Shown here piece after piece: positions 15,920 to 60,425 of a DNA stretch of 64,000 bases (the stretch's first letter is position 1; every line of letters begins with the position of its first letter). Under the pieces are notes generated by a model that saw only the letters and a list, made by a program, of their open reading frames with translations, ran no database searches and was not told where the DNA came from. A program made the position numbers and the translations under genes. Source of the DNA: a bacterium (GTDB lineage: Bacteria; SM23-81; DAOVCL01); the NCBI GenBank assembly GCA_029932675.1, contig JAOZPP010000001.1, positions 24,099 through 88,098 on the forward strand, given 5' to 3'.

Positions 15920-18900
15920 TCATCTAATCAACACCATTTTCCTACTCTTTATCATCTTACCCCTATCACCTATCACCTGTAACCTACAAATGTATACCCC
16001 ACTGGCTACTGGTTTGCCCCAGCTATCCCTTCCATCCCAAAGGACCCGATAGTAACCAGGTTTTTGCTCTTCATCCACCAGCGTCCTCACCAGTCCCCCC
16101 AATACATTATAGACCTTCAAACTAACGTGGATCGTGCTCGTAGCCCCTGCTCGTGAACCCCCAATGGCTGAGGGTTGGTAACGGTCTCCGGGTAACGAGT
16201 AACGAATCACGGTTGTTGGATTAAAAGGATTGGGATAGTTCTGGGCAAGGCCAAATTCCTTAGGAAGATTGGCAGTTAACCCTTGGTTGTCCACCCCCTC
16301 CGGAGGCAAGATGATAAACGAAGAGTCACTTTCATCCATCCCCACATTCCCTGACCTGTCATAGGCCAAAATTCTGACGATACAGCTATCAGAAGTCAGA
16401 CTATCAGTAATCTCCCAGACAAATAAGGAATCAGCTACTACACCTCGAGCTATTGTATCCCCATAGGTCCTCCCTCCATCATAGGAGAGGAAAACACTCA
16501 GACTCTCAATCCCTATATTGTCTTCAGCCTTAAACTTAATGGTATCCCTCTCCCCTACCCTCCACCTCTCCCCCCCATTGGGCACCAAAACCTGAACCTG
16601 GGGAGGGGTTCTATCCACTATGCTGAAAAAACCTTTGGTTTGGCCCTGTCCGCTGTTGTGCAGGAAATCATAAGCTACCACCCTCAACTGGCAGCTATCC
16701 GAAACAATATTGGGAACTTGCCATAGGTATGTGCTGTCACTGCCTTCAACGACTGCTATGGAGTCCCATTCCGTTTCTTCTTGGAATTTATAGAAAATGT
16801 GAAGTGTCAGGATGTCATTCTCATCTGTGGCGCTCCAGAGAATTTGGGTTTGAGCTCCACAGCTTAAAGTCTCGCCAGGCGATGGGGAATAGATGGTAAC
16901 CACAGGGCCTTTTGTGTCCACCAAGGTTGAGCCTTCGGGAGCATCGGTGAAGGCTTCCACATTCCCGGCGCTATCCTGGGCAATGGTCTGAAACCAATAG
17001 TACCCATCTCCGCTATCGGCAGAAAAGTAAAAGGTGCTCCCTGATGCAGCCTCCCCGGAAAGTATCCAGTCTACCTCTTTCCACTTGTACTTGTAGAATA
17101 GCTGTATTTGGTAAATACCACTTGATGGTTGAGAATCCGTGGCTGCAAAGTGAATTTCAAAAAAGGAAGCATTAGAGGAGTCCGGAACCTCTGTCACCCA
17201 GGATGTTGGGTTCACTCGATCCAGGAAGATGCTGTCATTTGCTACAGGGCTTAGATTGTCGGCAACATCCTTAACCTGGGCATATACCCTGCGCCAGCCA
17301 TCACCCAAGGAGGGGGAGAGAACAAACATCAAGGTGTCTTGGAGGGGGATCCACCCAGTAGAATTCATATTAAAGGAGGGATCCTCTGCCAGCCTTACTG
17401 AATTGGGGTAACCACCATAACCAAGGGCAACAACTACGGTATCGCCGTTCGTGTATCGACTGGAGGAAGGGGGGCGGTTGGACAAGCTAATAGAACAAGA
17501 TAGTCGATCAGTTTTCACCACCACCGAATCCTCAGCCAGGAAACTCCTCTCCTCCCAATTTCCCGCTGAATCCTCGGCAATCATCTCAAAGAGATAAAGC
17601 GTATCGCCGGTAGCATTGAAAATAATAGGATTACCAGGGGAGGCACTACCATAAAGATGCCACTCCCCCCCCTTCTTCCTATAATAAAGCTTCACTTGGG
17701 CTACACCGCTTGAAGGAGCTGGGTCGGAGTAGGTATAAGGAATTTGGAAATTGACCTGGTTGATATAATCTGGCAAACCGGAAACCTCAGCCTGTGGTGG
17801 TGCCTTATCTAAAAAAATGCTCTTGCTCAAAATAGAGCTTCTATTACCTGCTGGATCTCTCACTTGAGCAAAAACACTCCGCCATCCCTCGGCACCTGGA
17901 GTTAGAATATACAAGTAGCTTTCGGCTATATCGATCCACCCAGTCGAATTCACGGAAAAACTGGGGTCCTCAGCCAATCTCATCTGGCTCGGTGAACCGG
18001 TATAGAAAAGGGAAAGGGCAAGGGAGTCGCTATTGGTAAACCGGGGTGAACCCGAACTTATGTCCCCCATTATCAGACTCTCCAGCACAGGAGCCGTAGT
18101 ATCTACAACCACGGAATCCTCGGCCTCAAAGATCTGGTTCTCGATGTTGCCCGCCGAATCTTCCGCCACCACCACAAAGAAGTAGGTCCCCTCCCTCCCT
18201 GAATGGAAAGAAAAGCTCCCATCAGGGCTCTCAGTTCCATAACTTACCCAACCCTCACCATTCTTCTTATAGAAAAGCTCCACTTGGGTCACACCACTTG
18301 AAGGATATGGATCGGAATAGGTATAGGGTATCTGAAAAGAGAGGGTATTAATATAATCAGGCAACCCTGAGACCTTGGCCTGCGGTGGAGCCGTATCCAA
18401 GAAGATACTCTCGCAAACCACCTGACTCGTGTACCCTAGAGAATCTCGCAACTGGGTATAAATCTCCCTTAACCCATCCCCAGAAGTGAGCATATAGGAT
18501 AATTCAGGAGTGAGCTCTTGCCAATCTGTGGAATTAATGGAGAAGAGGGCATCCTGTGCCAATCTCATCTCAGTTATGCCCCCTTTATACTCCTCTATCT
18601 TGACCCTCACTGATTCTTCGTTGGAGTATTTGGGAGAACCGGAATCCAGGTCCTCTAAGGTAACTCTTGTTAAGGTTAGCACTGTATAGGAAGGTGACTC
18701 TGGAGAGAGGGGTCCAACATTACCAATAGAATCTACTGCCGCTACCCGCACCTTATAGGTGTGGCCTCGTAAACCCTCTATGGAAGAACAAGTATCCGTC
18801 GCTGTTGCCACCTCTACATACTCCGAACTATCAACTGATTCGTAAATGTTATAGTGATCCACTGGTGATCCTTGAGTAGGAGGTGACCAACAGAAGCCAA

Positions 18901-21538: not shown

Positions 21539-21745
21539 CCTTTTGCCACAGAAAGTGAAATATTTCAGAGAAAGTTGGACTTTTTAGGGCTTTTAAAATG
21601 TTGTGGTTCCCTAACGCATAACGCAGGATTTTTATTCGGTGACCTTCGGTGCTGAATGAATGTTATTTACCCTGTTCATCCTGTCAATCCTGTCTAAAAA
21701 TGGAAGTTCTCACGATTTAAGGTTCAAAATCTACAAAATCTGCGG

Positions 21746-22582: not shown

Positions 22583-22651
22583 TTCCTATGGATAGGAAGG
22601 TGTTAGGTTTTAGGAAATAGCTTAGAGAAGACGGGTGATAGGTGTTAGGTG

Positions 22652-23071
22652 TTAAGTGGAGAGGCGATGCTCATCCTTCCATTTGAGCAAGGATTTCTCC
22701 AATGCTCTCAGCATCTTTCCACACTCCTCGTAGGACTTACTCAACCTCTCGTATTGCCCCCTGGTCAAATAATCCTTGCGAAAAGCTATGAACAAGTGAT
22801 GCAGAGTCTCTTGGAGCTCCCCAAGAGAACGATTTATCCCCTCCAAGTAGATATTTATGTGCTTGTTATTCCAGCCCTCAGCTAAATTAGCTGCTATGGA
22901 ATTAGAAGACCTTCTTATCTGCGATCCTAATTCATAAAGCTCAAACTTAGGGAACTTAAGAGAGAACTTGCTAATCTCCAAATGCAGATCACAAAGCCTT
23001 TTGTATACCTCCAAATCCCCAAAGCTCTCTATCTTCTTATTGTCTTTTACCTTAAACCTACCACCTTCCAC
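22652..23071 (-). CDS. four-helix-bundle protein (23S rRNA intervening-sequence protein family, TIGR02436-like)
   Basis: SFGDLEVYKRLCDLHLEISKFSLKFPKFELYELGSQIRRSSNSIAANLAEGW is a typical family signature. Apparent GTG start. Confidence 0.6.
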   Translation of the reverse strand: MEGGRFKVKDNKKIESFGDLEVYKRLCDLHLEISKFSLKFPKFELYELGSQIRRSSNSIAANLAEGWNNKHINIYLEGINRSLGELQETLHHLFIAFRKDYLTRGQYERLSKSYEECGKMLRALEKSLLKWKDEHRLST

Positions 23072-23120
23072 CTTCTACCTTCTACCTTCTACCTATCACC
23101 TCTAACCTATCACTCACCTA

Positions 23121-23867
23121 TCACCTGATTACCACCATCCTTTTCGTCTTTCTCGCCTTTAACCTATCACCTACCACCTCTAACCTATAAAAATATACCC
23201 CACTGCAAACCTCTTCCCCAAAATTGTCCCTTCCATCCCACACGACCCTATAATAACCCGGCTCCTTTTCTCCGTCAATCAGATCTCTCACCTTCTCTCC
23301 CAAGCTATTGTAAACTTTTAAGGTTATGGGTATGAGGTGAGAGGCGTTAGGTTCCCCTTTCACCTTAAACCTTTCACCTATCACCTGGGGGACGGTGTAG
23401 CGGATGGTGGTGGACGAATTGAACGGATTGGGGAAATTTTGACTTAGTGAAAATCTTTTAGGCAATTCTTTCCCTTGAGTCTCATCAACACCCGATAAGG
23501 TAGTATCAGGAGAGGCTTCAGACAATGGCCCCTCCACTCCATCTGAGTCCACAGCAGAGACTTTAACCCAATAGGTATGCCCGGCTGAGCCGACAATAGA
23601 AGATATAGTATCATAAGCAATCTTTACGAACTTATAGCTCGTATCATTGTTTACATCTACCGCCCTATAGACCTTATAATGGTCAACAGGAGCCCCAGTT
23701 TTCGGAGGCGACCAGTGAAAAACAAGTGCATTTTCCTGCCCCAACGCAGAGGTGTTCCCAGGAGACAAAACAGAGTAGAGAACCACGATAGTCAGTAGAA
23801 AAAATGGCAACATCCGCAATTTTTGGGTCAATTTCCCCTCTCTCAAAAGTATAGCAGGAACAGGCAT
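23121..23867 (-). CDS. secreted FN3-like domain protein with T9SS type-A C-terminal sorting domain (paralog of the N- and C-termini of 15920..18991)
   Basis: FHWSPPKTGAPVDHYKVYRAVD matches CWSPPTQGSPVDHYNIYESVD in the larger protein. C-terminal NFPNPFNSSTTIRYTVP...ITLKVYNSLGEKVRDL...SGVYFYRLEV. Start is ambiguous (ATG at 23867, 23813 or 23933). Confidence 0.7.
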   Translation of the reverse strand: MPVPAILLREGKLTQKLRMLPFFLLTIVVLYSVLSPGNTSALGQENALVFHWSPPKTGAPVDHYKVYRAVDVNNDTSYKFVKIAYDTISSIVGSAGHTYWVKVSAVDSDGVEGPLSEASPDTTLSGVDETQGKELPKRFSLSQNFPNPFNSSTTIRYTVPQVIGERFKVKGEPNASHLIPITLKVYNSLGEKVRDLIDGEKEPGYYRVVWDGRDNFGEEVCSGVYFYRLEVVGDRLKARKTKRMVVIR

Positions 23868-25625: not shown

Positions 25626-25743
25626 TGATGCTCCCTCCCAGATTTTTTGACTCACCCACTGAAAGTTAAGCTTCTGATTCTAAAATATTTATGCAATTCT
25701 TGTGCCAAGCGACAGAAAACGATTTTAAGGACTTAACTGATAG

Positions 25744-25866
25744 TACGGCAAAAAGTCCAATTAAAAGCTATAACTGGTTAAGCCTCAAAATGTAACCCAT
25801 TTATTTTCAATGCGATGCATTTTGCATCTGTAGTGCCCTAGAGCAAATTTTGACTTTTTGCCGTAC
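25744..25866. repeat. 123-bp palindromic element: perfect 15-bp terminal inverted repeats GTACGGCAAAAAGTC with an inner GATGCAtttTGCATC palindrome
   Basis: Arms at ~25744-25758 and ~25852-25866, with the inner palindrome at ~25814-25828. Lies at the GC-content transition. Confidence 0.6.
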
Positions 25867-26025
25867 CATCTTAACTTACTTATTAACAAAATCATAGTCA
25901 TCCTCTCTGTAATTGTGCTTTTCTATTAAGTGCCTATTTTTAGACCACTCTGTTCTAAAAATTACCAAATCACCATACAAAATTGAGGTATCTAAACTCA
26001 ATAAGTAACACTCAGATTTTATGCC

Positions 26026-31893: not shown

Positions 31894-31972
31894 ACTTTGA
31901 CCTCCTATATCTCATTCTCATTAGACAGGATTTACCGGATGATCAGGATAATAGAAAATCAATTTAGTAATA

Positions 31973-33208: not shown

Positions 33209-33236
33209 ATCGAAAGTTCCAATACCATTAACTCAT

Positions 33237-33472
33237 TTGACAGGATGAACAGGATTTACTGGATTTTTAATTTTCTCAAGGAAACACCGAAGGAGACGGA
33301 AAAGTTGACCTAAGAAGCGCAGATTCCGTAGATCGTAGTTCGTGGATCGTAAATCGCTGTTCGTCACTCGTAAATCGGCTAATAATTTCGTGAATTTTCG
33401 TGGCCCCCTAACGCATAATCCATATTTATCATTGTGCTTAATGAACGTTATTTATCCTATTCATCTTGTCAG
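33237..33472. repeat. full-length copy of a TIR-bounded MITE-like structured repeat (archetype copy B)
   Basis: Left terminus TTGACAGGATGAACAGG (~33237-33253). Right terminus CCTATTCATCTTGTCA (~33456-33471) is its imperfect reverse complement. Internal CACCGAAG...CTTCGGTG sub-terminal inverted repeats. Eight CGTNNNT heptamers at ~33327-33382. CCCTAACGCATAA box at ~33406-33418. Confidence 0.6.
33327..33382. repeat. 7-bp-period microsatellite (CGTNNNT x8)
   Basis: CGTAGAT CGTAGTT CGTGGAT CGTAAAT CGCTGTT CGTCACT CGTAAAT CGGCTAA. Related arrays at ~35295-35336 and ~50121-50155. Confidence 0.6.
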
Positions 33473-33485
33473 CCCTGTTACACTA

Positions 33486-33725
33486 TCAGGATGAACTATA
33501 TTCAAGGACCTTACCAATCTCCTTCAATCTTCTCCTACCTCCCTTCAATTCGCTTTCCACCTTTTCCAAATAACGAATGGTGCGTCGATCATAGTAATGC
33601 TCGCCACAACTCCGACAAACCGGGGTCTTAATGTTAACATAAACGACATCTTTACCAACTGAAATCACTTCTTTGACATCCATCACTTGAACATCTTCGC
33701 TATGACAAATTACACACCTCATCAC
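33486..33725 (-). CDS. YgiT-type zinc-finger protein (MqsA-like antitoxin-type Zn ribbon)
   Basis: CVICHS...CRSCGEHYYD CxxC...CxxC ribbon. Overlaps the upstream DUF4258 gene by 4 nt (ATGA). Confidence 0.6.
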   Translation of the reverse strand: MMRCVICHSEDVQVMDVKEVISVGKDVVYVNIKTPVCRSCGEHYYDRRTIRYLEKVESELKGGRRRLKEIGKVLEYSSS

Positions 33726-34045
33726 GTCCTCCTTCTCCGATAATCAATCCATAATTTAGGATTAGGATGATATACCGTAATGACGATTGTTAAATCTTCG
33801 TCTTTACCATATGCACATAGGATGTGCAATGGCCGGCTTTTGCGGGTCTTGCCAAACATCAAAACACTGGGATAGGGTTTATCCCTCGGGTATTCCCGAA
33901 TTACCTCCGCGCTACAGACCGCTTCGTAGACTTCGTTTTCTTTAATCTCACCAAACATCTCATTTCTCATCTCAACCCTTGCATGCTGAGTATAAAACAC
34001 ACGATTACTCTCAAAGCATCGCTGAATCTTCTTAACCCACTCCAT
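33722..34045 (-). CDS. DUF4258 domain protein (putative toxin partner of the YgiT zinc-finger protein)
   Basis: YTQHARVEMRNEMFGEIKENEVYEAV...PYPSVLMFGKTRKSRPLHILCAYGKDEDLTIVITVYHP matches the DUF4258 profile. Confidence 0.6.
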   Translation of the reverse strand: MEWVKKIQRCFESNRVFYTQHARVEMRNEMFGEIKENEVYEAVCSAEVIREYPRDKPYPSVLMFGKTRKSRPLHILCAYGKDEDLTIVITVYHPNPKLWIDYRRRRT

Positions 34046-34061
34046 TTCATTAACATTTATT

Positions 34062-34233
34062 TTGACAGGATGAACAGGATTTACTGGATTTTTGACTTCC
34101 TCAAGGCAACACCAAATGGCACCGAAACGACCGAAAAATTATCACGCACATCCTTCCTTAGAACTTATTGATATTCAGTTGCTTTCGGTGTTTAATGAAT
34201 ATTATCCTGTCAATCCCTGTCTATCCTGTCTGA
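34062..34233. repeat. second copy (C) of the MITE-like structured repeat
   Basis: A 32-nt stretch TTGACAGGATGAACAGGATTTACTGGATTTTT is identical to copy B. Right end ATCCTGTCAATCCCTGTCTATCCTGTC. Internal CACCGAAACG...CTTTCGGTG. Confidence 0.6.
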
Positions 34234-34242: not shown

Positions 34243-35274
34243 TTAGGGAAAGTGTTTAACGATCTTTGGCCCAAAATGGTTTGCTACTGATAAGGGTAAC
34301 TTCCTCCACAGTTTTATAGCCATTTTATACTTGGGATTGCTGGGGTTCAATGAGGGGATTTCGTCTATGGAGTTTAGATAATATTGCCAATGTAACTGCT
34401 TTATCTCCCCGCCCCACTGCTTTTTAAATTTAAAAGTCCCTGAATCCCAACTGGACCTGCCGAAATCAAAATATTTGAAGCCATTTTCACATCCATATTT
34501 TATTGCCTCCCAATATAATAAATCATTCGGACAATATCTAAAATAGGATCTTAAGGAAGAAGCAGAAGGAATATATACCCGGTCCTTCCATAGAAGCATT
34601 AGGGCACCGCCGACAACTTTCTTACCTAATTTAACCAAAATAACCTTGGTATCCAAAGGAAATTCTTGGATAATGTTTTTGAACAGACTGTAACCCCAGA
34701 CTGGTGTCCCCAGATCCCTCATATTCTCCCCAAAGACCCTGTAGAAATGTTTTAAGTGAGTTTCACCTCCGATATCAACTTTCAATCCAGACTTTACGGC
34801 CTTCCTCACCTGGTTTCTTACCTTCGCCTTGAAACTTTTCCATATCTCCTCCGGGTTGGGTGTAAGGGGTAAAATAAATGTTACTTTGTCCTCTTTAGTT
34901 TTGAGACCCAAACCTGAACCATTAACAGACCTCATCTCCAAGAACTGGGCATTCTCCTTTTTGACAAATTCTATTGCCTTAGTTAAGAGCAGTTCCTCAA
35001 TTTCCTGGCTATCAGCACAGATTCCCCCATAGTCAATCCAAGGGAGGGAGATGAACAGTTTTCGTCTCAAGATTCCTTTGATACAAACCATAGGGAAAAT
35101 TCCTTTAATCCTCTCATTATCAATAGCCATAAGGTAGGAAGATTTGTGACCAAAGCTTCTCTCAAAAACTCTAAGCCAACCGATTCGATGGGCTATGGTG
35201 ACCCGTGGGGATTTAGCCACATACTGCTCCCATAGTTTTTCATATTTATCGGAATAACGGACGATTCGTAACAC
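34243..35274 (-). CDS. FemAB-related / GNAT-fold acyltransferase (exopolysaccharide locus type)
   Basis: About 340 aa with a FemAB-like pattern. Resembles the PEP-CTERM-system-associated FemAB family. Confidence 0.55.
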   Translation of the reverse strand: MLRIVRYSDKYEKLWEQYVAKSPRVTIAHRIGWLRVFERSFGHKSSYLMAIDNERIKGIFPMVCIKGILRRKLFISLPWIDYGGICADSQEIEELLLTKAIEFVKKENAQFLEMRSVNGSGLGLKTKEDKVTFILPLTPNPEEIWKSFKAKVRNQVRKAVKSGLKVDIGGETHLKHFYRVFGENMRDLGTPVWGYSLFKNIIQEFPLDTKVILVKLGKKVVGGALMLLWKDRVYIPSASSLRSYFRYCPNDLLYWEAIKYGCENGFKYFDFGRSSWDSGTFKFKKQWGGEIKQLHWQYYLNSIDEIPSLNPSNPKYKMAIKLWRKLPLSVANHFGPKIVKHFP

Positions 35275-35468
35275 GACGATTAACTCCTTAATCTCGTAGA
35301 TCGTGGATCGTTGCTCGTTGCTTGTTACTCGTAGGGATTTTAAGGTTTAGGTCTCTATGTCATTCGTCATCAGGGTTTTGGCATTAACTTGAGGCCCACA
35401 CCAAAGTGCGGTAGAAGTCCTCTACTCAAGGCAATCTGAAAACTGATCTCTGACCCTATTAACCGATT
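35275..35468. repeat. divergent/partial copy (D) of the intergenic repeat family containing a CGTNNNT heptamer array
   Basis: CGTAGAT CGTGGAT CGTTGCT CGTTGCT TGTTACT CGTAGGG at ~35295-35336. Shares CTCAAGG...CACC motifs with copies B and C but lacks clear TIRs. Confidence 0.4.
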
Positions 35469-36878
35469 CTAAGAACTATGCTCTATTCCCTGTCCGCTGA
35501 AAACTGAATTCTTAAGCATTACTGTTATTGCCGTAATTGTATATAAATGTGGATAATACAGAGCCGAGAGAAATGTGGATGCCACCAAGAAACCTATCAT
35601 ACTCCCGTTAACGGAATTTCCCACATATTGACCAAATCCATACTGTGTATGTGATGAACTATAAATATGTGAAATGCGCCGGGTATCTCTGAAGTTAAAA
35701 CAGAAAAAAGCTAAAAAGCAGAAAAACCCTATAATACCCAATTCTGACATCACCTGGGGAATTGTCCCGTGAAGGACTCGCCCCCATTGTGTATTTGGGT
35801 TACTTTTCCCTTTATAATACAAGGGAAGATAAATCCCATCGTTGCCAGCACCAACCCCAATGATAGGATGGTCTTTGAACATCTTAAAACCGGCTTTCCA
35901 ATATTCCCTCCTTGTTTCAGCCGTTCCTTGAGTGGTATTTCTTATAGATTTCAGTTCCTCCACATACTTCTTGGGAACAAGAACACTGAAAGCAATTATG
36001 AAAATTGAACCCACCAAGACAGCACGAATCTTTTGAGGACTTTTCCACCAACAGTACCCCAAAACTGCTACCAAGCCGATAAATCCGCCACGTGACATTG
36101 TAAAGACAATACAAAGTATATACAAAAAGAGCAGAAACAAAGCAGAAAGTCTTTTTAGCTGGGTCTTTGCATGAAAAACTAAGAAATAGGAAAAGGGTAG
36201 GATAACAACTAATGCCAAAGCCAAATCATTTTCGTCACTGAGGAAATCACCTAAAACGATTCCAGTAGTCCCCCAAGGGTTCCCTGCTAAATATTGATAA
36301 ATACCCTTAATAGCTATGTAACCATAAATGATCAGCAACATCCAGATAAACTTTTTTAGTTTGTCTTCGGTTTTTATCAAATTGGTAGCCAAGAAAAAGG
36401 TAACAAAGAGCAACATCATTGAATAAAAGGTGCGGTAGGCCCAGAAATTGTTCCTGGCGGTAAGAACCGTCAAACCAATAAGTGCCATATAAAAAAGAAA
36501 CACCCAGCTTTGATTAGTCCAGATTACTCTCCTCTTTTTTGTAACGAAACTCAACAGAAAGGAGACAAAAACAACAATCGTAGTCAGCATTGCTATCCGC
36601 AACGGAGCCAACTGAGGAAATTGGTCCTGGGGACGAGCATATTCAATGAAATAGACTGCCATAATTCCCCACACTGGATACTTTATTATCCAAAAAAAGA
36701 TAACTATCCCAGGAATTAAAACAATAGGCAAAACTGAAGAAAATTTAAGAGGCAAACGTAATAAGATAGCACCTAACAGTATGGAAAGTAGTATAATTAA
36801 AGGGATTTTTAGTTTAGACAAGGTAAGGTGCCAACTAAGACCAAACCCTCTACTTGCATTAGTATTCCTTTTATACAT
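35469..36878 (-). CDS. O-antigen ligase / Wzy-like polymerase family membrane protein
   Basis: FTMSRGGFIGLVAVLGYCWW is a Wzy_C-type motif. About 12 TM helices. Confidence 0.65.
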   Translation of the reverse strand: MYKRNTNASRGFGLSWHLTLSKLKIPLIILLSILLGAILLRLPLKFSSVLPIVLIPGIVIFFWIIKYPVWGIMAVYFIEYARPQDQFPQLAPLRIAMLTTIVVFVSFLLSFVTKKRRVIWTNQSWVFLFYMALIGLTVLTARNNFWAYRTFYSMMLLFVTFFLATNLIKTEDKLKKFIWMLLIIYGYIAIKGIYQYLAGNPWGTTGIVLGDFLSDENDLALALVVILPFSYFLVFHAKTQLKRLSALFLLFLYILCIVFTMSRGGFIGLVAVLGYCWWKSPQKIRAVLVGSIFIIAFSVLVPKKYVEELKSIRNTTQGTAETRREYWKAGFKMFKDHPIIGVGAGNDGIYLPLYYKGKSNPNTQWGRVLHGTIPQVMSELGIIGFFCFLAFFCFNFRDTRRISHIYSSSHTQYGFGQYVGNSVNGSMIGFLVASTFLSALYYPHLYTITAITVMLKNSVFSGQGIEHSS

Positions 36879-37005: not shown

Positions 37006-38028
37006 CTATATTACTCTACTTGTCTTTCTACTGAAAACAAACAAAACAAATCCAAAAACAATAATACTCCAATAACTTATTACCCGATCCAAAATAGCCA
37101 CTGAGAAGGCAACCTCCTTATCAAAGTTAAAAAATAACAAAATCCCCATTATGGCAAACTCAACTGCGCCCAACCCAGCAGGAGAAATGGGTATCGCTGT
37201 TAATAACGCGGAGGCAAGGGCAACAAAGGTTATTAGCGACAACCGGACTTCCAAGTGTAAAGAGTGTGTTACGAAAAATAACCTTCCTATCTCCAGTAAC
37301 CAGATGAGAAGGGTAAAACAGGCAAGCAACGGGACTCTTTTGATGGAATTGATTGTTCCCTCTTCAAAGCGACCATAAATATCTTCAATCTTGCCAGGAA
37401 GTATTTTCCTTATAAATCTATCAAAATACCTCATAGACAAAAGAACGAGAACAAAAATTACTACGATTGAAAATCCGGCTCCAAAAAGAGAAAGAATTTT
37501 AGGAGGGAGTTTACTTCTAAAACTCAATAGACCAGCAAATCCAAATAGAACGAAAAGAATCAGCATATCAGAAACCCTCTCCACAAAGATTGATCCCATA
37601 GTCTTTGATAATGAAAAATCATAATTTTTTTTAACAAGATAAGCTCTATACAAATCTCCCAACTTAGCCGGTATAACACAATTGGTAAACCAGGAAATAA
37701 AAAGTATCTCAGTAGCATCTTTTCTCGAAGCCCTAAAACCTGCATTTGTCAAGATCATCCTCCACCTAATTCCCCTAATGGGCACGGTAAAATAGAACAC
37801 TACAAAAGCCATAAAATATAAAAACCAGTTTGTTTTCTCTAAAATTCTTATCGTTTTATGAGTGTCAATTCGGGTATATAAAAAATACAATATTATAAAA
37901 GCTGCCGAAAAGGAAATTAATGTTTTTAGGCTAAAGAATTTCTTCCTTAGCGAAACTCCTTTGACAGAACTATCATTCATAATTAATATCTCGTTACCCG
38001 TAAAGATGCTTTTCGTATAACCTCTCAT
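37006..38028 (-). CDS. flippase-like domain membrane protein (UPF0104 family), paralog of 6516..7508
   Basis: Multi-TM protein with the same family pattern (RGIRWRMIL...). Overlaps the upstream GT4 gene by 35 nt. Confidence 0.55.
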   Translation of the reverse strand: MRGYTKSIFTGNEILIMNDSSVKGVSLRKKFFSLKTLISFSAAFIILYFLYTRIDTHKTIRILEKTNWFLYFMAFVVFYFTVPIRGIRWRMILTNAGFRASRKDATEILFISWFTNCVIPAKLGDLYRAYLVKKNYDFSLSKTMGSIFVERVSDMLILFVLFGFAGLLSFRSKLPPKILSLFGAGFSIVVIFVLVLLSMRYFDRFIRKILPGKIEDIYGRFEEGTINSIKRVPLLACFTLLIWLLEIGRLFFVTHSLHLEVRLSLITFVALASALLTAIPISPAGLGAVEFAIMGILLFFNFDKEVAFSVAILDRVISYWSIIVFGFVLFVFSRKTSRVI

Positions 38029-39112
38029 AGCTCTCCACCATCTTATCCACAGTGAATTTTTCTTTATATAATTGGAAAGCCTTTTGTCGCATTAAATCTC
38101 TTAAGTGGTCATCAAGCAAGATTTTTATTATCTTTTGAGCAAACTCTTTAGGCTCCCTGGTGTAGACGAGGTAGCCAGTTTCACCGTCTTTCACCGCTTC
38201 AGGAACTCCACCCACCGCAGTAGCCACAACCGGCTTTCCCGCAGCCATAGCCTCAAGCAAGACTATGGGTAGCCCCTCAGAACGAGAGGGGAGAGCAAAG
38301 AGATCGAATATACGCATTATAGAGGGAACATCCAGACGAACCCCAGTGAAGATGACTTTATTAGCGATACCCAAAGAATGAGCAAGATTAAGCAATTTTG
38401 CCTTTTCCTTTCCATCACCTACGATTAAGAACTTTACATTGGGAATCTTCTTGACAACTAGTGGGACTGATCGAAGCAACAATTCATAACCCTTTACCTT
38501 AGTAAGACGAGAAATGGAGCCAACCACTTTTTCCTCAGGAATTATACCGAATTCTTCTCTGATTTCCTTTTCATTATTTGGATCAGCATTGACAGAAAAA
38601 TTCGTACCATTGTAGATGACCCTTATCCTTCGGGGACTTATATGTTCGTATTTTATCAAATCATCTCTAAGGTGCTGAGACACAGCAACTATCTCACCAG
38701 TGAAGTGAGAAGCTACTCTCTCAGCCATCATATACCTCCCTTTATCTGGCCATTCTCTCATATGGTCAGTATGGATAAAAACTGGAGTTCCAGTAAGTCT
38801 TGTCGCAAGAAATCCGTCGAGAAAAGCCCCTGTGTTATGAGTGTGCACTATATCTATCTTTTCCCTTACCAATAGTTTTCTTACCTGCAACCAAACAAAA
38901 TATTTGCCATATTTTGACTTTCCCGAACAGAGAAATACCTTAAAGCCATCAGATTCTAACTGCTCAGCATATTCTCCCCCTTCTCTTAAACAGCAGACCA
39001 TTACCTGGAAACGGCGAGGATCCAGATAACGGCACAGATCCAGGATTACCTTTTCCAGACCACCAATTCCCATTCCCAGAGTTATTTGCAACACATTTAT
39101 GCGTCCTGCCAT
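37994..39112 (-). CDS. glycosyltransferase family 4
   Basis: RSEGLPIVLLEAMAAGKPVVATAVGGVPEAVKDGETGYLV. Confidence 0.8.
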   Translation of the reverse strand: MAGRINVLQITLGMGIGGLEKVILDLCRYLDPRRFQVMVCCLREGGEYAEQLESDGFKVFLCSGKSKYGKYFVWLQVRKLLVREKIDIVHTHNTGAFLDGFLATRLTGTPVFIHTDHMREWPDKGRYMMAERVASHFTGEIVAVSQHLRDDLIKYEHISPRRIRVIYNGTNFSVNADPNNEKEIREEFGIIPEEKVVGSISRLTKVKGYELLLRSVPLVVKKIPNVKFLIVGDGKEKAKLLNLAHSLGIANKVIFTGVRLDVPSIMRIFDLFALPSRSEGLPIVLLEAMAAGKPVVATAVGGVPEAVKDGETGYLVYTREPKEFAQKIIKILLDDHLRDLMRQKAFQLYKEKFTVDKMVESYERLYEKHLYG

Positions 39113-39196
39113 ATTCCTTAACCTCCAAGAAACTAATATCGTTATTCGTTACTTAATCACGCTTACAAAAAAGGTCTGTTCCCCCCTCTCCTCTAT

Positions 39197-39224
39197 ATCC
39201 TGACAATCCTGTTAATCCTGTCTA
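39197..39224. repeat. right-end fragment of the repeat family (ATCCTG x3) abutting a stop codon
   Basis: ATCCTGACAATCCTGTTAATCCTGTCTA. The TAG stop of 39222..40361 lies inside it. On the mRNA strand it reads UAGACAGGAUUAACAGGAUUGUCAGGAU. Confidence 0.45.
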
Positions 39225-40361
39225 AGAGTTCACAGTTTTCTTGACCATATCGTAGTATTTCTCAAGATAACACTCTTCAGAGAGGTATTTATGGACATAA
39301 TGATAACCGTTCTCAGCTAACTTACGGGCATAAACTCTATCAGACAATAGCTCCCGCATTTTTTCGGCGAGATCCTGGACATTTTCTGATTGAAAGAGGA
39401 GACCATTATATCCATCCTTTATGTAAGTAGGAATCCCACCGACATTTGATGCAATTATAGGCTTTTTTGAAGCCATTGCTTCAAGAAGCACCCTTCCCAT
39501 AGCTTCTGACCTTGATGGTAAAACAAACAGAGAGCATTCAGACATCAGTTGGATAGCCTCTTCATAAAAGACAGGATCACATAATTCAATTTTGTTATTG
39601 CCTCTCGCTAAGTCTGCAAAATATTCTTTATGACTGGGACACCAACCAACTATTTTCAAGCTATATTCAGGGAAATCAGGAGAAATAATCTTGAATGCCT
39701 TAATCAATATATCAACCCCTTTTAGATACCAGGGGTAACCGAGAAACAGGATATATTTTTTATCCTTTTTACCTTCTTTGAATAAATTAAGAGGGATAAA
39801 ACCAGCGAAGCGATAGTATCCTTCCGGGTATTTTAATTTTTTATAAGATTTTATCTGATTTTTGTTTAAGAGTTTGACTGCATTCGCCCGATTTAACACG
39901 AAGGGCATAATTATATGGGTGATATTGTGTTTGATCCGATCCATAAGAATAGGTTTCCCAGAACTTTGCTTAAATGCCGATTCGAAATTCCCATTTACCT
40001 CAACTATTACTTTTACTCCGGTTAATTTGCCGATAAGAAGAGCAATAATTCCTGTGAGCAATGGGTCGGGTGAAACTATTACATCAAACTTATTTTTGAA
40101 ATAATGTAACCACAATCCTTTGATTGGAAAAGAGATTAGCATAATTAGATTGCGAATAACGGTGGACCTCCTGGCTACACCTGCATGGAATCTAAAATCA
40201 CCAATAGTAGCATTTCGGTCTTCTTTTCTGCTCCTATAGACCGCAGTGATCACATCGCCACAAAATCCCTGAGATAAACATCTATATTTCTCTTGTGGAT
40301 AAGTCCAGTGCAGGGTACTTGGTCCTGGCTTAACAAATAGGATTCTATATTTTTTTTGCAA
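39222..40361 (-). CDS. glycosyltransferase family 4
   Basis: RSEAMGRVLLEAMASKKPIIASNVGGIPTYIKDGYNGLLF. Confidence 0.75.
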   Translation of the reverse strand: MQKKYRILFVKPGPSTLHWTYPQEKYRCLSQGFCGDVITAVYRSRKEDRNATIGDFRFHAGVARRSTVIRNLIMLISFPIKGLWLHYFKNKFDVIVSPDPLLTGIIALLIGKLTGVKVIVEVNGNFESAFKQSSGKPILMDRIKHNITHIIMPFVLNRANAVKLLNKNQIKSYKKLKYPEGYYRFAGFIPLNLFKEGKKDKKYILFLGYPWYLKGVDILIKAFKIISPDFPEYSLKIVGWCPSHKEYFADLARGNNKIELCDPVFYEEAIQLMSECSLFVLPSRSEAMGRVLLEAMASKKPIIASNVGGIPTYIKDGYNGLLFQSENVQDLAEKMRELLSDRVYARKLAENGYHYVHKYLSEECYLEKYYDMVKKTVNS

Positions 40362-47895: not shown

Positions 47896-47991
47896 GGGAC
47901 AGACATTTATGTCCGTCCGCTTCCTCGAACTCCCTACAGCAAGAGACCTCAGCGATTTAAGAGGTGCTGTGAATTTATGAATAATCCGGGA
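47896..47991. repeat. left copy of a ~100-bp inverted repeat pair (partner at ~49867-49968)
   Basis: GGGACAG...CGCTTCCTCG...TCCCTACAGCAAGAGACCTCAGCGATTTAAGAGGTGCTGTGAATTTATGAATAATCCGGGA. Includes the last 5 codons and stop of the methyltransferase gene. Confidence 0.6.
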
Positions 47992-48424
47992 CAATAACTT
48001 CGAGGCTCTGACTTACTTTGGTTTTAAAGGTCCCTCCTTTTCCTCCCCAAATTCGCTCAGAAAAAAGGAACCATCCGCCCGGTTTTAATGAATGAAAAAT
48101 CTGCACACAAAGTCTCTCAATTTCCGGAATATGATGTAAAGCATCCCAAGCTGTAACCAGATCATATTTGTTTGGAGTTAACTCGTATTTATTCAAATCC
48201 GCCACAATCCAGTTGATTTTCCCTAGGGGTTTTTGCTTCAGTTGACTATGATATTTTTTAGCTACGTTGATTTCCCTTTCACTACAATCCACAGCATCGA
48301 CAATTTTCCCGGCCCATGCCATTTCTAAACTCAGCCACCCTGCACCGCGACCAAGATCAAGCGCTCTATCCCCGCGGCATCCCCTGGCAAACAGAGTCAA
48401 GGTTCTCCGAAATAAGCTCCTCAT
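47975..48424 (-). CDS. class I SAM-dependent methyltransferase
   Basis: Motif I ALDLGRGAGWLSLEMA. Start moved to ATG 48422-48424 (MRSLFRR) because the upstream in-frame extension to 48589 would overlap the ACP gene by 224 nt in another frame. Confidence 0.5.
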   Translation of the reverse strand: MRSLFRRTLTLFARGCRGDRALDLGRGAGWLSLEMAWAGKIVDAVDCSEREINVAKKYHSQLKQKPLGKINWIVADLNKYELTPNKYDLVTAWDALHHIPEIERLCVQIFHSLKPGGWFLFSERIWGGKGGTFKTKVSQSLEVIVPDYS

Positions 48425-49524: not shown

Positions 49525-49866
49525 AACCTATTTCCAATGAAGCCCACATACAATTAGAAACTTTCCCGGCGGGTAAAACCATCCATAAACCACAGATGAC
49601 CTCCCTTAACTAAAAACCCCCTGGGGAATGCGTTGAGGTTTCTCTCTAAACTATTTAACTGGGTGAACACAGACTTCCGCGGATAAAATCAACACTGCTC
49701 GTGGCTTGTTACACTACGCTAAATTTCCTTCCCAGTGCTTATAGCTTGAAGAATGAAGTGGTTCTTATTTCGTTTCATTCACCTCCCCAGTAGCCAGTGA
49801 CCCATAAAGGATGACCTGGGAAATATCAAATTTTCTACTTCTCTCAAGATCAAATCTGCAGATTTT

Positions 49867-49968
49867 ATCCCGGATTATTCACAAATTCACAGCACCTCTC
49901 AAATCGCTGAGGCCTCTTGCTGTAGGGACTCCGCCTTAGCGGAGCCCGAGGAAGCGAACAGACTGTCC
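49867..49968. repeat. right copy of the inverted repeat pair (about 90% identical to ~47896-47991 in opposite orientation, with a 17-nt insertion)
   Basis: TCCCGGATTATTCACAAATTCACAGCACCTCTCAAATCGCTGAGGCCTCTTGCTGTAGGGA... The plus strand reads ATC CCG GAT TAT TCA CAA (IPDYSQ), a pseudo-copy of the methyltransferase C-terminus VIVPDYS*. Confidence 0.6.
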
Positions 49969-50120
49969 CTCCAAGACATAATACCTTAAATTTAAAAGGA
50001 TTGTGCCATTTCGTTTCCAATTTGTGAACAATTGAGGTTAACGACTTTAAGGCAAAATATTCATAAACCACCGATGAGCACAAGTTTTCCCAGGCACAAT
50101 CGCAACCCCCCAAAAAAACA

Positions 50121-50155
50121 TCGTAGTTCGTTGATCGCAGCTCGTTACTTGTGAG
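50121..50155. repeat. CGTNNNT heptamer array (third locus)
   Basis: CGTAGTT CGTTGAT CGCAGCT CGTTACT TGTGAGG. Confidence 0.5.
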
Positions 50156-51232: not shown

Positions 51233-51282
51233 TTTACCTCAATGCGATGTTAACGACCAATAGTCAATATACAATAATTAAT

Positions 51283-51339
51283 TAGCAATGATCAATTAGC
51301 AAGCTCAAATTAAGAATTGAGCAATGGTCAATTAACAAG
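51283..51339. promoter_or_regulatory. paired direct repeats TAGCAATGATCAATTAGCAAG / GAGCAATGGTCAATTAACAAG flanking an imperfect palindrome; candidate regulator binding site
   Basis: 18/21 identical copies spaced 36 bp, upstream of the BY-kinase gene. A related ATCAATTAGCAAG lies at ~52541-52553 upstream of the TPR gene. Confidence 0.35.
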
Positions 51340-51403
51340 TGGGAGAAAAGCGAGATGTTCATTGATAATTGTCCACTGCTCATTGACCATTTTTACTTGC
51401 TTC

Positions 51404-56305: not shown

Positions 56306-57120
56306 TACTCCTTTAGTCTATTTTGAATAAAACATACTGGAAAAAAATGAAATTGGCAAGGGAAAAAGCCACGGAAAATACTTCGGCGGTTTAAACCGTT
56401 CAATAATAGGCAAAAAGTAACCACTATGCGGGAATAGAATTGGCTAACCCCAAAGAAACCCCAAGAAAGAACTTGGTTCACTACAAGTCCTCCCTATAGC
56501 GGCTATCACCCCTCTGGTCTACAATAATCCCCCTCATCCCTTGAGGGGGTCATAACTTCTGTAAACAACCCTTTGCTTTGGGCATTTCTGAGAAGCTCCA
56601 AAAGGTTCTATAAAAGCTGCTCAGGAGCGGATCAGGGCAAAATGGGCATAATAAGATATAAGCAAAATCTGTGCCAAGGAAGGGGAACAAGTAAGTAATT
56701 CGGGGTTTCTCCTTCTATCCCCAAATTCTCCCCCCTTGGAGAGACTAATTTACCCTCCTTTGCCATAGAGTGTTTTCCTTTTATCTCCGCATTTTGCAAA
56801 GGGCTGCAAAGTTTATGCAAATACCTTCAACGAGAAGAGAAATTCCTCTTGATTTTCCCTCCCCCACTGCTTATTTTATAACCATCTCTACTACCTCAGT
56901 GGAACTGCTTACCTAACCCGGATTGTTCATAAGCACCTCACGGATGGATCTCAAGAGCTGTTCCTACAGCAAAAATATTAAGAAATTTGGGACTCGATGC
57001 TAATTTCTGAATAAATCGGGAAAGGGAAATCCGCAACCGGGCAGGAGCGGTTAGGTAAAAACTTTTAGCGTCAAGGCTTTCATATAGGGAAACATCTGCT
57101 AACCCTTGAGGATATCGATT

Positions 57121-58365
57121 ATGAAGGACCTCACCGGTCAACTTGAGCTGACAAACAAGAAACTGAAGAGGAGGCTTTACGATCTATATACCCTCTTCGA
57201 GCTTAGTCAACACCTTAACTCTGTACTGGAGCTTGATCCCCTCCTTGACTCCATCCTCCTGATCTGCCTAGGCCAAATGGGGGTAGGGGGGGCAGTTCTT
57301 TTTCTCACCCAAAGGGGGACGTTGAAGGTAGCCAAAGCCAAGGGGATGAAATCCCAAGATCTTCAGGGAAAGGAGATCGGGCTTCACAGCACCTTGGGAC
57401 AGTTCCTCTCTAAGGCCAACCGAGCCATCCTTTTTGGTGATTTAGAGAAAATAGCGGGGGCTGAGGAGGAGGTAAAAAGGCTAGACAGCTTAGAGTGCGA
57501 GGTGTGCATCCCCCTTAATATAAAGGGAAGGTTAAAGGGAATTTTAACCCTTACCCCGAAGATCTCTGGTGCTCCTTTTACAAGTAACGACTTAGAGTTT
57601 CTCACCACATTGGCCAATCAATTGGGGGTAGCCATCGAGAACGCTGAACTTTATGAGAGTGTAAAATTAACCAACCTCGAACTGAGGAGAACGCAGCAAC
57701 AGTTGATCCATAGCGAAAATTTAGCTACCGTAGGGAGACTGGCAGCTACTCTCGCTCATGAGATAAACAATCCCCTTGGGATAATAAAGAACTACCTCAC
57801 CCTTCTCAGCAAAAAGGGGAACCATAATTCAGAGACCATAGAGGTAGTAAAAGAGGAAGTGGAAAGAATTGGCAAAATCGTGGGACAGCTCCTCGACCTC
57901 TCCCGGCCGATGTCAGAACCAAGAAGCCCTATCGACTTAAATCAATTGATCAGGGAAACCTCCTCGGTCCTAAGAGAACAACTCCTCCGAGATGGAATCA
58001 CCTTAGAAGAGAACCTTTCCCCCATCTCATTAGTAAATGCCTCTCCTGGCCAATTAAAACAGGTCTTCCTCAACCTGATTGCCAATGCTAAAGAAGCAAT
58101 GCCTCGGGGTGGGAAGTTAGTGATAAATACCAAAATGGAAGATAACTTTGTGGAGATAAGTTTCTCAGATACCGGAGAGGGTATTAAGGAGGGGGAGATA
58201 AAACGGCTTTTTCAACCATTCTATACCACTAAAAAGGATGGTATGGGGTTAGGTCTCTCCATCTGTGAGGAGATAATTCGCAACCATAGAGGTGAGATAT
58301 TGGTCAAGAGGGGTAAAGAAAAAGGAAGTATCTTCACCGTTAGGTTGCCGGAGGTTGGTAAGTAA
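57121..58365 (+). CDS. GAF-domain sensor histidine kinase
   Basis: GAF N-terminus. H-box ATLAHEINNPLGII. HATPase_c N/G boxes (NLIANAKEAM, DTGEGI, GMGLGLSI). ATG at 57121. The listed 57106 start is a TTG. Confidence 0.8.
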   Translation: MKDLTGQLELTNKKLKRRLYDLYTLFELSQHLNSVLELDPLLDSILLICLGQMGVGGAVLFLTQRGTLKVAKAKGMKSQDLQGKEIGLHSTLGQFLSKANRAILFGDLEKIAGAEEEVKRLDSLECEVCIPLNIKGRLKGILTLTPKISGAPFTSNDLEFLTTLANQLGVAIENAELYESVKLTNLELRRTQQQLIHSENLATVGRLAATLAHEINNPLGIIKNYLTLLSKKGNHNSETIEVVKEEVERIGKIVGQLLDLSRPMSEPRSPIDLNQLIRETSSVLREQLLRDGITLEENLSPISLVNASPGQLKQVFLNLIANAKEAMPRGGKLVINTKMEDNFVEISFSDTGEGIKEGEIKRLFQPFYTTKKDGMGLGLSICEEIIRNHRGEILVKRGKEKGSIFTVRLPEVGK

Positions 58366-60425
58366 TGGGAGGTAGGATTCTTGTTGTAGACGACGAGGAA
58401 AGGATGTGCGAAAGCATGCGCGCCCTCCTCTCTCAAGAGGGATATGAGGTAGATACAGCCTTAGATGGAATTGAAGCCATCAAGAAGGCTCAAAAAGGAA
58501 GATTCGACATGGTAATTACCGACCTGAGGATGTCCCCGATAGATGGGATCAAAGTATTGGAGGGCGTAAAGGAAGCATCTCCTCAGACACTTATAGTCAT
58601 CCTCACCGCTTATGCCACCCTGGATTCAGCCATAGAAGCCATAGGCAAAGGGGCTTATGATTACCTGATGAAACCGGTGGAATTCCCAGATTTGAAGAAA
58701 ACGGTGGAGCGGGGGATGGAGAAGTTAGAATGGGAGCGAAGGCAGAGAGAGCTCATGATAGAACTCCGGGAGAAGAATATCCTCTTGGAACAGAGGCTAC
58801 GGGAATTAGACGCTGTCTATGAGGCTTCGACTTCTCTTATCTCCGTGCTCAAGCTCGATGATAGCTTAGAGAGGATTGTGAACTTAGCTGCGGATGTCTT
58901 AGGGGCTAAATTAGGTTCTTTAATGATCTTAGATGAGAAAGGAAAGTATTTAACTATAAAGGCAGCAAAAGGGCTGGAAGAAGATATCATTAGGCAGACA
59001 AGACAAAAGGTTGAGGGAAGCATCTCTGGTTGGGTAGCCCAGAAGGGAGAACCTCTGCTTGTGGAGGATATCGAATTAGACCCCCGCTTCCGAAGATTGA
59101 ACCGACAAAAGTACGAGACCAAATCTCTTCTCAGCGTTCCCCTAAAGATCAAGGGAAAGATTTTAGGGGTGTTGAATATGAACAACAAATCATCGGGAGA
59201 CCCTTTTAACAAATCTGACCTCCGCCTTCTTTCTACCTTCGCCTCTCAAGCCGCTTTGGCCATTGAGAACGCTGCCCTCTTCGAGGAGAGCCGAAAGAGG
59301 ATTAAGGAACTCTCTGTCCTCTATAGGATTGCCAGTAACCTCCCATCTTCTGAAAACCGGGAGTCTATGATCCTTATGGTCTGTCAGGGTTTAATGGAGA
59401 TAATGAATGTAGAGAACTGTTATTGGTTCCAGGGTGAGGGCAAAGAGTTCAATCTCGTTTACACTTGCCAGGAAGGGAAACCCACCTCCTTCCCCCCCCT
59501 TAAGCTAAAAATTGAAGAAGACCTTAGCTCAGAAAACCTTTCCCAAAGGGTGCACGCCTTCTTGGTCGCTAATGGCCTGCTCTCTTCCCAGGCTAAGGGA
59601 ACCCTCTCAGTCCCCCTGATGATTAGAGGAAAACTGAGGGGCATCTTCTCCCTATCAGCTCCAGAGGAACTCTCCGAGCGGGAGAAGAAGCTAACGTCAA
59701 TCTTAGTCTCCCAGGCCACTTCCCTCTACGAGACCCAAAGCGCCATCCTCTCAGCCGGCCAACTGATGATTATGGGCCAACTTGTTTCAGAGATCAGCCA
59801 TGACCTTAAACAACCATTGACCAGTATGCGTGGAACCCTCCAGATGCTCAAACAAAAGTGGGACAAACTGCCCTCGAAGGAGGAATATCTGAACAACTTG
59901 GAAAAGGATATAATGACGCTCTCTGATTTGGTCAGGGAATTACTTCGCTTCTCCAATCCTCAGTCATATGCTCGCCAACCAAAACAGATTACCGTGATAA
60001 TTGATCGGGCCTTGGAGCTAGTGGGAAGTGAGTTAGAGGCAAATGATATCAGGGTAGAGATCACTTCCCCCTCCCCACTACCCTCGCTTCTCTTAAACGA
60101 AAACGAGATCCTCCAGGCAATAATCAACATCATCTTCAATTCGATCCAGGCCATGCCATCTGGGGGGAGACTGGGGATAAAGGTCCAAGAGGTGAAGAAA
60201 AAGGGAAGAAATTTCCTAAAAGTTGAAATTTCCGATACCGGGGTAGGTATACCGGCCGAGAACTTAAGTCACATATTTGACCGTTACTTCACCACCAAAG
60301 AAGGAGGGACTGGTCTAGGCCTCTCTATCGTCAAAAGAATCATTACCGCTCATCAAGGAGAAATGGAGGTAAAAAGCACCCTTGGGAAGGGGACAACTTT
60401 TAACATCTATCTACCCATATTATGA
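58365..60425 (+). CDS. hybrid response-regulator receiver / tandem GAF / histidine kinase protein
   Basis: REC ILVVDDEERM...MVITDLRMSPIDG. Two GAF-like regions. HisKA/HATPase_c (EISHDLKQPL, DTGVGI, GTGLGLSI). Overlaps neighbours by 1 and 4 nt. Confidence 0.75.
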   Translation: MGGRILVVDDEERMCESMRALLSQEGYEVDTALDGIEAIKKAQKGRFDMVITDLRMSPIDGIKVLEGVKEASPQTLIVILTAYATLDSAIEAIGKGAYDYLMKPVEFPDLKKTVERGMEKLEWERRQRELMIELREKNILLEQRLRELDAVYEASTSLISVLKLDDSLERIVNLAADVLGAKLGSLMILDEKGKYLTIKAAKGLEEDIIRQTRQKVEGSISGWVAQKGEPLLVEDIELDPRFRRLNRQKYETKSLLSVPLKIKGKILGVLNMNNKSSGDPFNKSDLRLLSTFASQAALAIENAALFEESRKRIKELSVLYRIASNLPSSENRESMILMVCQGLMEIMNVENCYWFQGEGKEFNLVYTCQEGKPTSFPPLKLKIEEDLSSENLSQRVHAFLVANGLLSSQAKGTLSVPLMIRGKLRGIFSLSAPEELSEREKKLTSILVSQATSLYETQSAILSAGQLMIMGQLVSEISHDLKQPLTSMRGTLQMLKQKWDKLPSKEEYLNNLEKDIMTLSDLVRELLRFSNPQSYARQPKQITVIIDRALELVGSELEANDIRVEITSPSPLPSLLLNENEILQAIINIIFNSIQAMPSGGRLGIKVQEVKKKGRNFLKVEISDTGVGIPAENLSHIFDRYFTTKEGGTGLGLSIVKRIITAHQGEMEVKSTLGKGTTFNIYLPIL

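Follow-up and report, generated by a model that had tools for sequence, protein, structure and literature searches.

Short, Degenerate Heptanucleotide Tandem Arrays in the Non-Coding Spacers of a PEP-CTERM/Exosortase Exopolysaccharide Cluster

Introduction

Tandem repeats of heptanucleotides have long been known in bacteria, the three tandem heptamers of Calothrix being among the early descriptions. As the work of Mrazek et al. (2007) is summarised in two later papers (PMC4679880, PMC4692102), heptanucleotide units are over-represented and rank first in abundance among the longer-unit simple repeats of many prokaryotic genomes, and this excess was attributed to the length of DNA that is held by the polymerase during slippage. 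The same two papers describe extensive variation in their length and sequence between related species (PMC4679880, PMC4692102). In the Beggiatoaceae, TAACTGA repeats are present in 2-6 copies, mostly just upstream of start codons (MacGregor 2015, PMC4679880), and a post-transcriptional role, exerted via S1, cold-shock-domain or CsrA-type proteins, was proposed for them; it was also noted there that CspB of Bacillus subtilis binds heptamer repeats, with one protein per heptamer. In Haemophilus influenzae, the (ATCTTTC)n tract in the 5′-UTR of hmw1A and hmw2A is a proven rheostat of expression, which acts via a long hairpin and RNase III (PMC12721329).

Here, we describe three heptamer arrays (A1, A2 and A3), to which a first-pass annotation had drawn attention, in a stretch of bacterial DNA of 64,000 nucleotides that was analysed as a whole (hereafter, the window), and we compare them with these systems.

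Results

Array A1 (33326-33381) consists of eight heptamers, which read CCGTAGA, TCGTAGT, TCGTGGA, TCGTAAA, TCGCTGT, TCGTCAC, TCGTAAA and TCGGCTA on the + strand. A2 (35294-35335) has six units (TCGTAGA, TCGTGGA, TCGTTGC, TCGTTGC, TTGTTAC and TCGTAGG) and A3 (50121-50155) has five (TCGTAGT, TCGTTGA, TCGCAGC, TCGTTAC and TTGTGAG), again as read on the + strand. In all three, the heptamers follow one another head to tail without spacers, and the best phase on the + strand is TCGT-N-R-N. The - strand carries every gene between about 15.9 and 41.8 kb and between 43.9 and 56.3 kb; since the neighbouring genes are thus all on the - strand, the arrays are assigned to it, their sense sequence is (NYNACGA)n, and the ACGA repeats lie on the sense strand of every gene that adjoins them. 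Reading the sequence therefore confirms the five to eight tandem heptamers that the first-pass annotation had reported at three loci, and the conserved CGT with a T at position 7 that it had described is the TCGT core of these 19 units.

The proposed check with an objective repeat finder gave the same answer, as both TRF and a shuffle test recovered the period-7 arrays. TRF found period 7 at 33327-33356 (score 39) in A1 and at 35293-35332 (score 38) in A2, as well as period 21 at 33327-33377 (score 60) in A1 and period 14 at 50120-50146 in A3. A de novo repeat search of the window grouped A1, A2 and A3 in a single family (D2), and one degenerate pattern that fits all three had three matches in the window and none in 100 dinucleotide-preserving shuffles. 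The arrays can be aligned in register and differ in length by whole units (eight, six and five). However, the order of the units at the variable positions was not significantly conserved between any two of them (715, 1215 and 966 of 5000 shuffles reached the observed value, p ~0.14 to 0.24 per pair), and hence we do not claim paralogy among A1-A3. A glycosyltransferase gene (37994-39112) has a GGAGG Shine-Dalgarno sequence that is preceded, at a distance of 12 nt, by a possible mini-array of two units (TCGTTAT and TCGTTAC, 39139-39152, - strand); on its own, this mini-array is not significant, with about two such pairs expected by chance in 64 kb.

Several known types of repeat were rejected. 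The arrays had been judged too short and spacer-less to be CRISPR, and this stands, since a CRISPR array needs repeats of ~23-50 nt with unique spacers of about the same length and A1-A3 are made of contiguous 7-nt units. Coding repeats, iterons and SARP- or OmpR-type DNA sites were likewise rejected, given the spacing of the units, their contiguity and the intergenic position of the arrays.

All three arrays are located between ORFs with Pfam support, that is, in non-coding DNA, and their spacers belong to co-directional genes of a PEP-CTERM/exosortase exopolysaccharide cluster. This cluster encodes the exosortase EpsH, a DUF3485 protein, a FemAB-family PEP-CTERM-associated protein, a Wzy-type polymerase or ligase, a DUF3473 polysaccharide deacetylase, glycosyltransferases and a DegT aminotransferase, together with GNVR and Poly_export proteins and a sigma-54 two-component pair. 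From A1 it is ~150 nt to the likely start codon of the DegT-family aminotransferase gene, an ATG at 33178, which lies downstream. A2 lies between the Wzy-like and FemAB-like genes and, on the mRNA strand, its end is followed after 4 nt by an AAGGAG Shine-Dalgarno sequence (35284-35289, - strand) and, after a 9-nt spacer, by the GTG start (35272-35274) of the FemAB-like gene (34243-35274, - strand), whose 343-aa reading is covered 100% by homologues. A3 is within a 973-nt stretch without a convincing gene, between the genes for a ParA-like ATPase and a polysaccharide deacetylase, and is ~600 nt from the next start codon. From these positions, we infer that the arrays are probably transcribed within leader or intercistronic RNA.

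Other repeats and sites were seen in the same region. On the mRNA, ~100 nt 5′ of A2, period-7 CTGANNN runs (CTGAAAA CTGATCT CTGACCC, and CTGTCCG CTGAAAA CTGAATT; 35436-35506) straddle the stop codon of the Wzy-like gene, reaching from the end of its coding sequence just into the spacer in which A2 lies, and have a partial likeness to the TAACTGA unit of the Beggiatoaceae. An inverted repeat of 84 nt (47916-47999 and 49860-49943, 86% complementary) brackets the genes for a methyltransferase and the DUF3473 deacetylase; one Logan contig ends inside an arm of it, which suggests that there are further copies in the genome. Lastly, TTGGCACAAGAATTGCAT (25656-26025, - strand), upstream of the gene for a 570-aa beta-helix protein, fits the sigma-54 promoter consensus TGGCAC-N5-TTGC, which is consistent with the sigma-54 activator/kinase pair encoded at 57106-61810.

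We then looked at the occurrence of such arrays in other genomes. The first-pass annotation had called a heptamer period unusual. This is not so: the class is over-represented in prokaryotes (Mrazek et al. 2007, as it is cited in later work), and at least 120 stretches of genomes that belong to many phyla contain arrays of the form (TCGTNGN)n. The search used the pattern TCGTNGNTCGTNGNTCGNNNNTCGNNNNTNG, which has 18 fixed bases and for which ~17 chance matches are estimated, assuming a uniform base composition, in the whole 596-Gb genome collection. Among the matches listed are Acidobacteriota, Chloroflexota, Bacteroidota, Cyanobacteria, Gammaproteobacteria, Nitrospirota and others. They include perfect tracts (TCGTAGC x10 in Alcanivorax, TCGTAGG x30 in stretch L108) as well as degenerate arrays in which a core is combined with variable positions (L012, L076, L088, L099 and L107), so this layout is not peculiar to the window. 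A literature search with unit strings (TCGTAGC/GCTACGA, ACAGGATT and others) matched only primer sequences.

In some unrelated genomes and metagenomes (L141, L107, L102 and L116), arrays with a TCGT/ACGA core are found on both sides of entire genes or blocks of genes. The inverted arrays of L141 (3211-3286 and 4510-4611) surround a gene that was judged to be TlyA-like by its N-terminal sequence alone, and in L107, direct arrays (790-1030 and ~4700-4950) surround a block of ~3.7 kb. A relative with 89% RibBA identity, L244, has no period-7 arrays in the 13 kb available, a stretch that ends short of the polysaccharide cluster. The spacers of its riboflavin operon (717-1839, 3464-3802 and 5009-5417) are much longer and filled with other repeats, among them long GC-rich hairpins and a ~130-nt sequence that is duplicated in direct orientation. 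Evidently, the repeats between genes are replaced rapidly in this lineage.

The TCGT arrays are not the only heptamers in the window, whose dominant short periodicity is 7. A 3-mer core occurring at least four times at period 7 gave 16 arrays, compared to 0.45 in shuffles, and the same count at other periods (5 to 11) gave 1-5 arrays each. An ACCTNNN array of ~12 units (23043-23126) lies 5′, on the mRNA, of a PF05635 gene (22652-23071, - strand, E = 1.6e-26), which encodes a 23S rRNA intervening-sequence/four-helix-bundle protein and is directly upstream of the exosortase gene. On the 3′ side of this gene are AGGT/GGTG-type heptamers (22598-22658, + strand) in inverted orientation relative to the ACCT array, and hence the gene is bracketed by inverted AGGT- and ACCT-type arrays. 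The predicted duplex of these two arrays has -57.7 kcal/mol, compared to -45 +/- 5.5 for shuffled partners, and the arrangement is reminiscent of the stems by which 23S rRNA is freed of its intervening sequences. Further ACCT arrays are found at 23156-23190 and 15955-15990, and an AGGT/ACCT hairpin (23322-23388, fold z = -2.7 against shuffles) is located inside the ORF of a protein with a FlgD_ig/CHU_C domain. The spacer that separates the ParA-like gene from the TPR gene contains CAATNNN units (51258-51340) together with inverted ATTG units (51356-51387), and the two sets are predicted to pair in a hairpin (z = -2.9). Unlike the ACCT/AGGT and CAAT/ATTG families, the TCGT arrays are solo, without an inverted partner.

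We next compared the core of the units with their free positions. Over the 19 units, positions 1-4 are T in 18, C in 17, G in 19 and T in 16, which means that 70 of the 76 core cells (92%) agree with TCGT, and 18 of the 19 units have a purine at position 6. At positions 5-7, the commonest base is matched in only 42-63% of the units of A1-A3. Departures from the consensus thus cluster at positions 5-7 (chi-square p = 2e-4, 19 units), with a p-value that is optimistic because the core is part of what made the arrays visible (ascertainment bias). Elsewhere, in 122 arrays from unrelated genomes among the matches listed, position 4 deviates from the first unit in 6% of the units and positions 5-7 in 14-18%; the comparison used only positions left free by the search pattern. 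A count of the mismatches in units flanking the pattern matches was dropped as biased by construction, since such units had failed the pattern. The unevenness between position 4 and positions 5-7 is not predicted by simple neutral decay and could be due either to a constraint on the core or to a need for core microhomology during slippage.

Neighbouring units are almost never the same: of the 16 pairs of adjacent units, only 1 consists of identical heptamers, and perfect period-7 repetition in A1-A3 extends over 8 bases at most, which makes the arrays poor substrates for slippage today. Of the suggestion that they are slippage or contingency tracts, the origin by slippage is plausible, but both of these observations speak against frequent slippage at present.

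The explanation that we prefer, to which we give about an even chance of being right, is that A1-A3 are short, decayed heptanucleotide tandem repeats in non-coding spacers, that is, long simple-sequence repeats of an STRR-like kind. Slipped-strand mispairing of a TCGTNRN unit would create the arrays, whole units would be gained and lost during slippage, and point mutation would then degrade the units. The arrays would now be largely a passive spacer, being too imperfect to slip often; at most, they may supply some unstructured sequence in front of a ribosome-binding site, but would not be an on/off switch. That period 7 occurs with several unrelated cores argues for a general mutational process rather than for one specific binding site, and the presence of A1 in one copy of a repeated element but not in its sister (see below) fits the local expansion that this explanation expects. 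The whole-unit differences in length, the similar arrays in other genomes, the low identity of adjacent units, and the lack of both a significant predicted RNA structure and an Rfam match also count in its favour. The points against decayed repeats are the unevenness between the core and the free positions, the common orientation of A1-A3 and the mini-array relative to transcription, and the position of A2 right beside a Shine-Dalgarno sequence, for which there is a published parallel in the TAACTGA repeats.

A role at the RNA level is possible, although we consider it unlikely. The unstructured (NYNACGA)n tract of the mRNA would act in cis as a platform that is coated by a single-strand-binding protein, one per unit, with a footprint of ~7 nt and a cold-shock-domain or S1-type OB fold, and this would tune the initiation of translation or the stability downstream. 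The same idea was proposed for the TAACTGA leader repeats, with CspB bound once per heptamer (PMC4679880). A 4-nt core with three free positions is what repeated contact with a protein is expected to leave, every array is oriented alike relative to the genes, and A2 and the mini-array lie 4 nt before AAGGAG and 12 nt before GGAGG, respectively. The predicted folding of A1-A3 and their spacers on the sense strand was no better than that of shuffled sequences (z -1.2 to +2.3), and hence the arrays would stay single-stranded. Duplex prediction for a complementary partner of the TCGT arrays within +/-3 kb gave only long-looped, uninformative pairings. Rfam gave no match at gathering thresholds in the whole window, nor at E <= 10 around A1 and A2. 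However, the position of the arrays is inconsistent for an RNA platform, with A1 ~150 nt and A3 ~600 nt from a start codon, and four arrays would share one orientation by chance in ~1 of 8 cases. The 120 listed loci elsewhere do not help here: relative to the flanking genes, 17 arrays are antisense and 9 are sense, but the ACGA strand is free of stop codons and ORFs run into the arrays, so both this split and the distances to start codons are confounded and were not used as evidence.

The surroundings of A1 bring mobile elements into consideration. A1 occupies the variable centre of a MITE-like element (33236-33482), whose inverted arms, (GACAGGATN)3 and (NATCCTGTC)3, are built of units with a 9-nt period. 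Like a MITE, this element is short and non-coding, has terminal inverted repeats and occurs in several copies (two full and three half copies in the window); Logan contigs terminate at the arms (33265 and 34064). A sister element (34061-34231) shares both arms, with 87% identity on one of them, but has no heptamer array in its centre, and A1 therefore looks like a local expansion or insertion rather than a component of the element family. Around A2 and A3, the repeat search of the window found no recognisable element. Thus, the arrays had been described as embedded in repeat elements, which is correct for A1 but not for A2 and A3.

The 9-nt-period units are found as intergenic inverted arms or hairpins at 33236-33265, 33453-33482, 34061-34090, 34203-34231, 21668-21697, 31921-31951 and 39187-39225. 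The arrangement of (GACAGGATN)3, a loop and (NATCCTGTC)3 was present in at least 120 JGI metagenome stretches, often as tight hairpins (L122, L131, L146, L159 and L186), and this hairpin motif had no match in Rfam or in the literature searched. Its CAGGAUG unit presumably resembles the CsrA-binding repeat of CsrB. The listed metagenome contigs, which were selected by this hairpin alone, have 11.9 period-7 arrays per 100 kb, with many different cores and often in inverted pairs, compared to only 0.7-4 arrays per 100 kb for periods 5, 8, 10 and 11. Between the two elements of the window (33486-34045), and hence amid the polysaccharide genes, a DUF4258 toxin gene (E = 1.5e-19) is inserted together with a 79-aa, weakly MqsA-like partner.

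The arrays could thus be remnants of mobile or recombining elements, either as internal parts of MITE-like elements or as junction repeats left by the insertion or exchange of cassettes in the cluster, which we regard as distinctly unlikely. A1 does lie within an inverted-arm element and beside an inserted toxin-antitoxin pair, other heptamer arrays bracket the inserted PF05635 gene in inverted orientation, and arrays flank gene blocks elsewhere (L107, L141 and L102). The cluster is also without a close relative elsewhere, as the closest FemAB-like homologue is 54-55% identical, compared to 88-90% for the RibBA relatives. An element origin is nevertheless hard to reconcile with the sister element that has no array, with the surroundings of A2 and A3, where no element is recognisable, and with the order of the units, whose conservation between arrays was not significant.

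More ambitiously, the TCGT arrays might be one 'word' of a wider, so far undescribed system of uncultured bacteria that acts at the RNA level, in which a 4-nt core and three free bases recur at 7-nt spacing, a proposal that we hold to be quite improbable. Solo tracts would then serve as docking sites of a protein that binds single strands and has a 7-nt footprint, and inverted pairs of tracts would be register-tolerant stems that bracket cistrons or cassettes for processing or stabilisation, as might be the case for the PF05635 gene here and for tlyA in L141.

We think it very improbable that the arrays are active contingency loci, in which the gain or loss of units would alter the length or structure of the leaders of surface-polysaccharide genes and thereby vary their expression. 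A surface-polysaccharide cluster is a typical target of phase variation, A1-A3 differ from one another by whole units, and a heptamer tract in a 5′-UTR is a proven rheostat in hmw1A of H. influenzae (PMC12721329). However, the tract of a contingency locus is long and perfect or near-perfect, while those in the window are short and imperfect, as their single identical adjacent pair and 8-base longest perfect run illustrate, and no long hairpin, cleaved by RNase III as the hmw mechanism needs, is predicted at A1-A3. Moreover, no difference in copy number was seen. Three Logan contigs of run SRR21545388, which are k-mer-based, span portions of the window, A2 and A3 included, and match it with 100% identity; they are unbroken at A2, A3 and the ACCT arrays, yet they break at other repeats (33265, 34064 and 49893). 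As the window is probably from the same run or population, this identity is weak evidence on copy number and shows only that no abundant length variant disturbed the k-mer assembly at A2 and A3.

A role in the initiation of transcription was also considered. The first-pass annotation had proposed that the arrays change the spacing of promoters, but they lie between co-directional genes of the cluster, one of them directly 5′ of a ribosome-binding site, and a consensus scan found no sigma-70-type promoter hexamers flanking A1-A3; given this location and this lack of hexamers, the proposal is not supported. Simple sigma-70 and terminator scans showed no enrichment, and no site at A1-A3. Nor is the period simply out of step with the helix, as had been argued, since three units make 21 bp, or two turns, which is the period-21 solution of TRF. 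Least likely of all is that the arrays, as double-stranded DNA, are bound by a transcription factor or a nucleoid protein and the cluster is controlled in this way. In favour of this, the core is conserved, every TCGT array of the window lies inside the polysaccharide cluster (33-50 kb) and every third unit (21 bp) is on the same helical face. Against it, sites that are 7 bp apart do not share a face of the helix with their neighbours, known binders of heptamer repeats, such as SARPs, have sites ~11 bp apart, and the arrays lie inside a co-directional run of genes without flanking sigma-70-type hexamers.

Discussion

Taken as found, the arrays are ordinary in kind and of little consequence. 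The bacterial heptanucleotide repeats, a class known for a long time, gain one lineage and one unit (TCGTNRN), and the result speaks against annotating A1-A3 as switches of phase variation or as features akin to CRISPR. Since solo arrays by a ribosome-binding site, heptamer hairpins and inverted arrays that bracket a gene are found together in the window, it offers a compact test case.

Like the hmw1A/hmw2A tract, the arrays described here would be heptamers in the leader of a surface-structure gene. The hmw tract, however, consists of at least 11 perfect copies, varies greatly in length and folds into a long hairpin that is cut by RNase III, and none of this is seen at A1-A3; a rheostat of the hmw type was rejected given the fold z values of -1.2 to +2.3 and the lack of a partner arm.

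The TAACTGA repeats of the marine Beggiatoaceae are more similar in their arrangement, being in one orientation and near the start codons of genes of many functions. Their copies do not deviate from the unit and often stand in for a Shine-Dalgarno sequence, whereas the units here are degenerate and a canonical AAGGAG is present, and only A2 (plus the two-unit mini-array) is close to a start codon. A leader repeat of the TAACTGA type was rejected on these grounds, as the unit is another one, AAGGAG follows 4 nt after A2, and A1 and A3 are 150-600 nt from the start codons.

The STRR of cyanobacteria (Calothrix/Nostoc) resemble the heptamers of the window in that there are several heptamer families per genome, in intergenic DNA and without an established function; they differ from A1-A3 in the sequence of the unit (TCGTNRN here). 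To our knowledge, TCGTNRN is not among the heptamers described for the STRR of heterocystous cyanobacteria. STRR in the strict sense were rejected, because there is no HIP1 palindrome in the 64 kb and the homologues of the host are non-cyanobacterial, the closest named protein homologues being those of Zixibacteria and other non-cyanobacterial MAGs.

The arrays are best compared with the broad class of heptanucleotide repeats, as A1-A3 are tandem and spacer-less, exceed what is expected from composition and are intergenic. As in the case of the long simple-sequence repeats (as far as the work of Mrazek, Guo and Shah 2007 is cited), the units are 7 nt in length and in tandem without spacers, mostly intergenic and over-represented, they are scattered across phyla, and they are thought to come from polymerase slippage. 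Compared to the typical catalogued tracts, A1-A3 are short (5-8 units) and far more degenerate, and they keep a 4-nt core while leaving three positions free.
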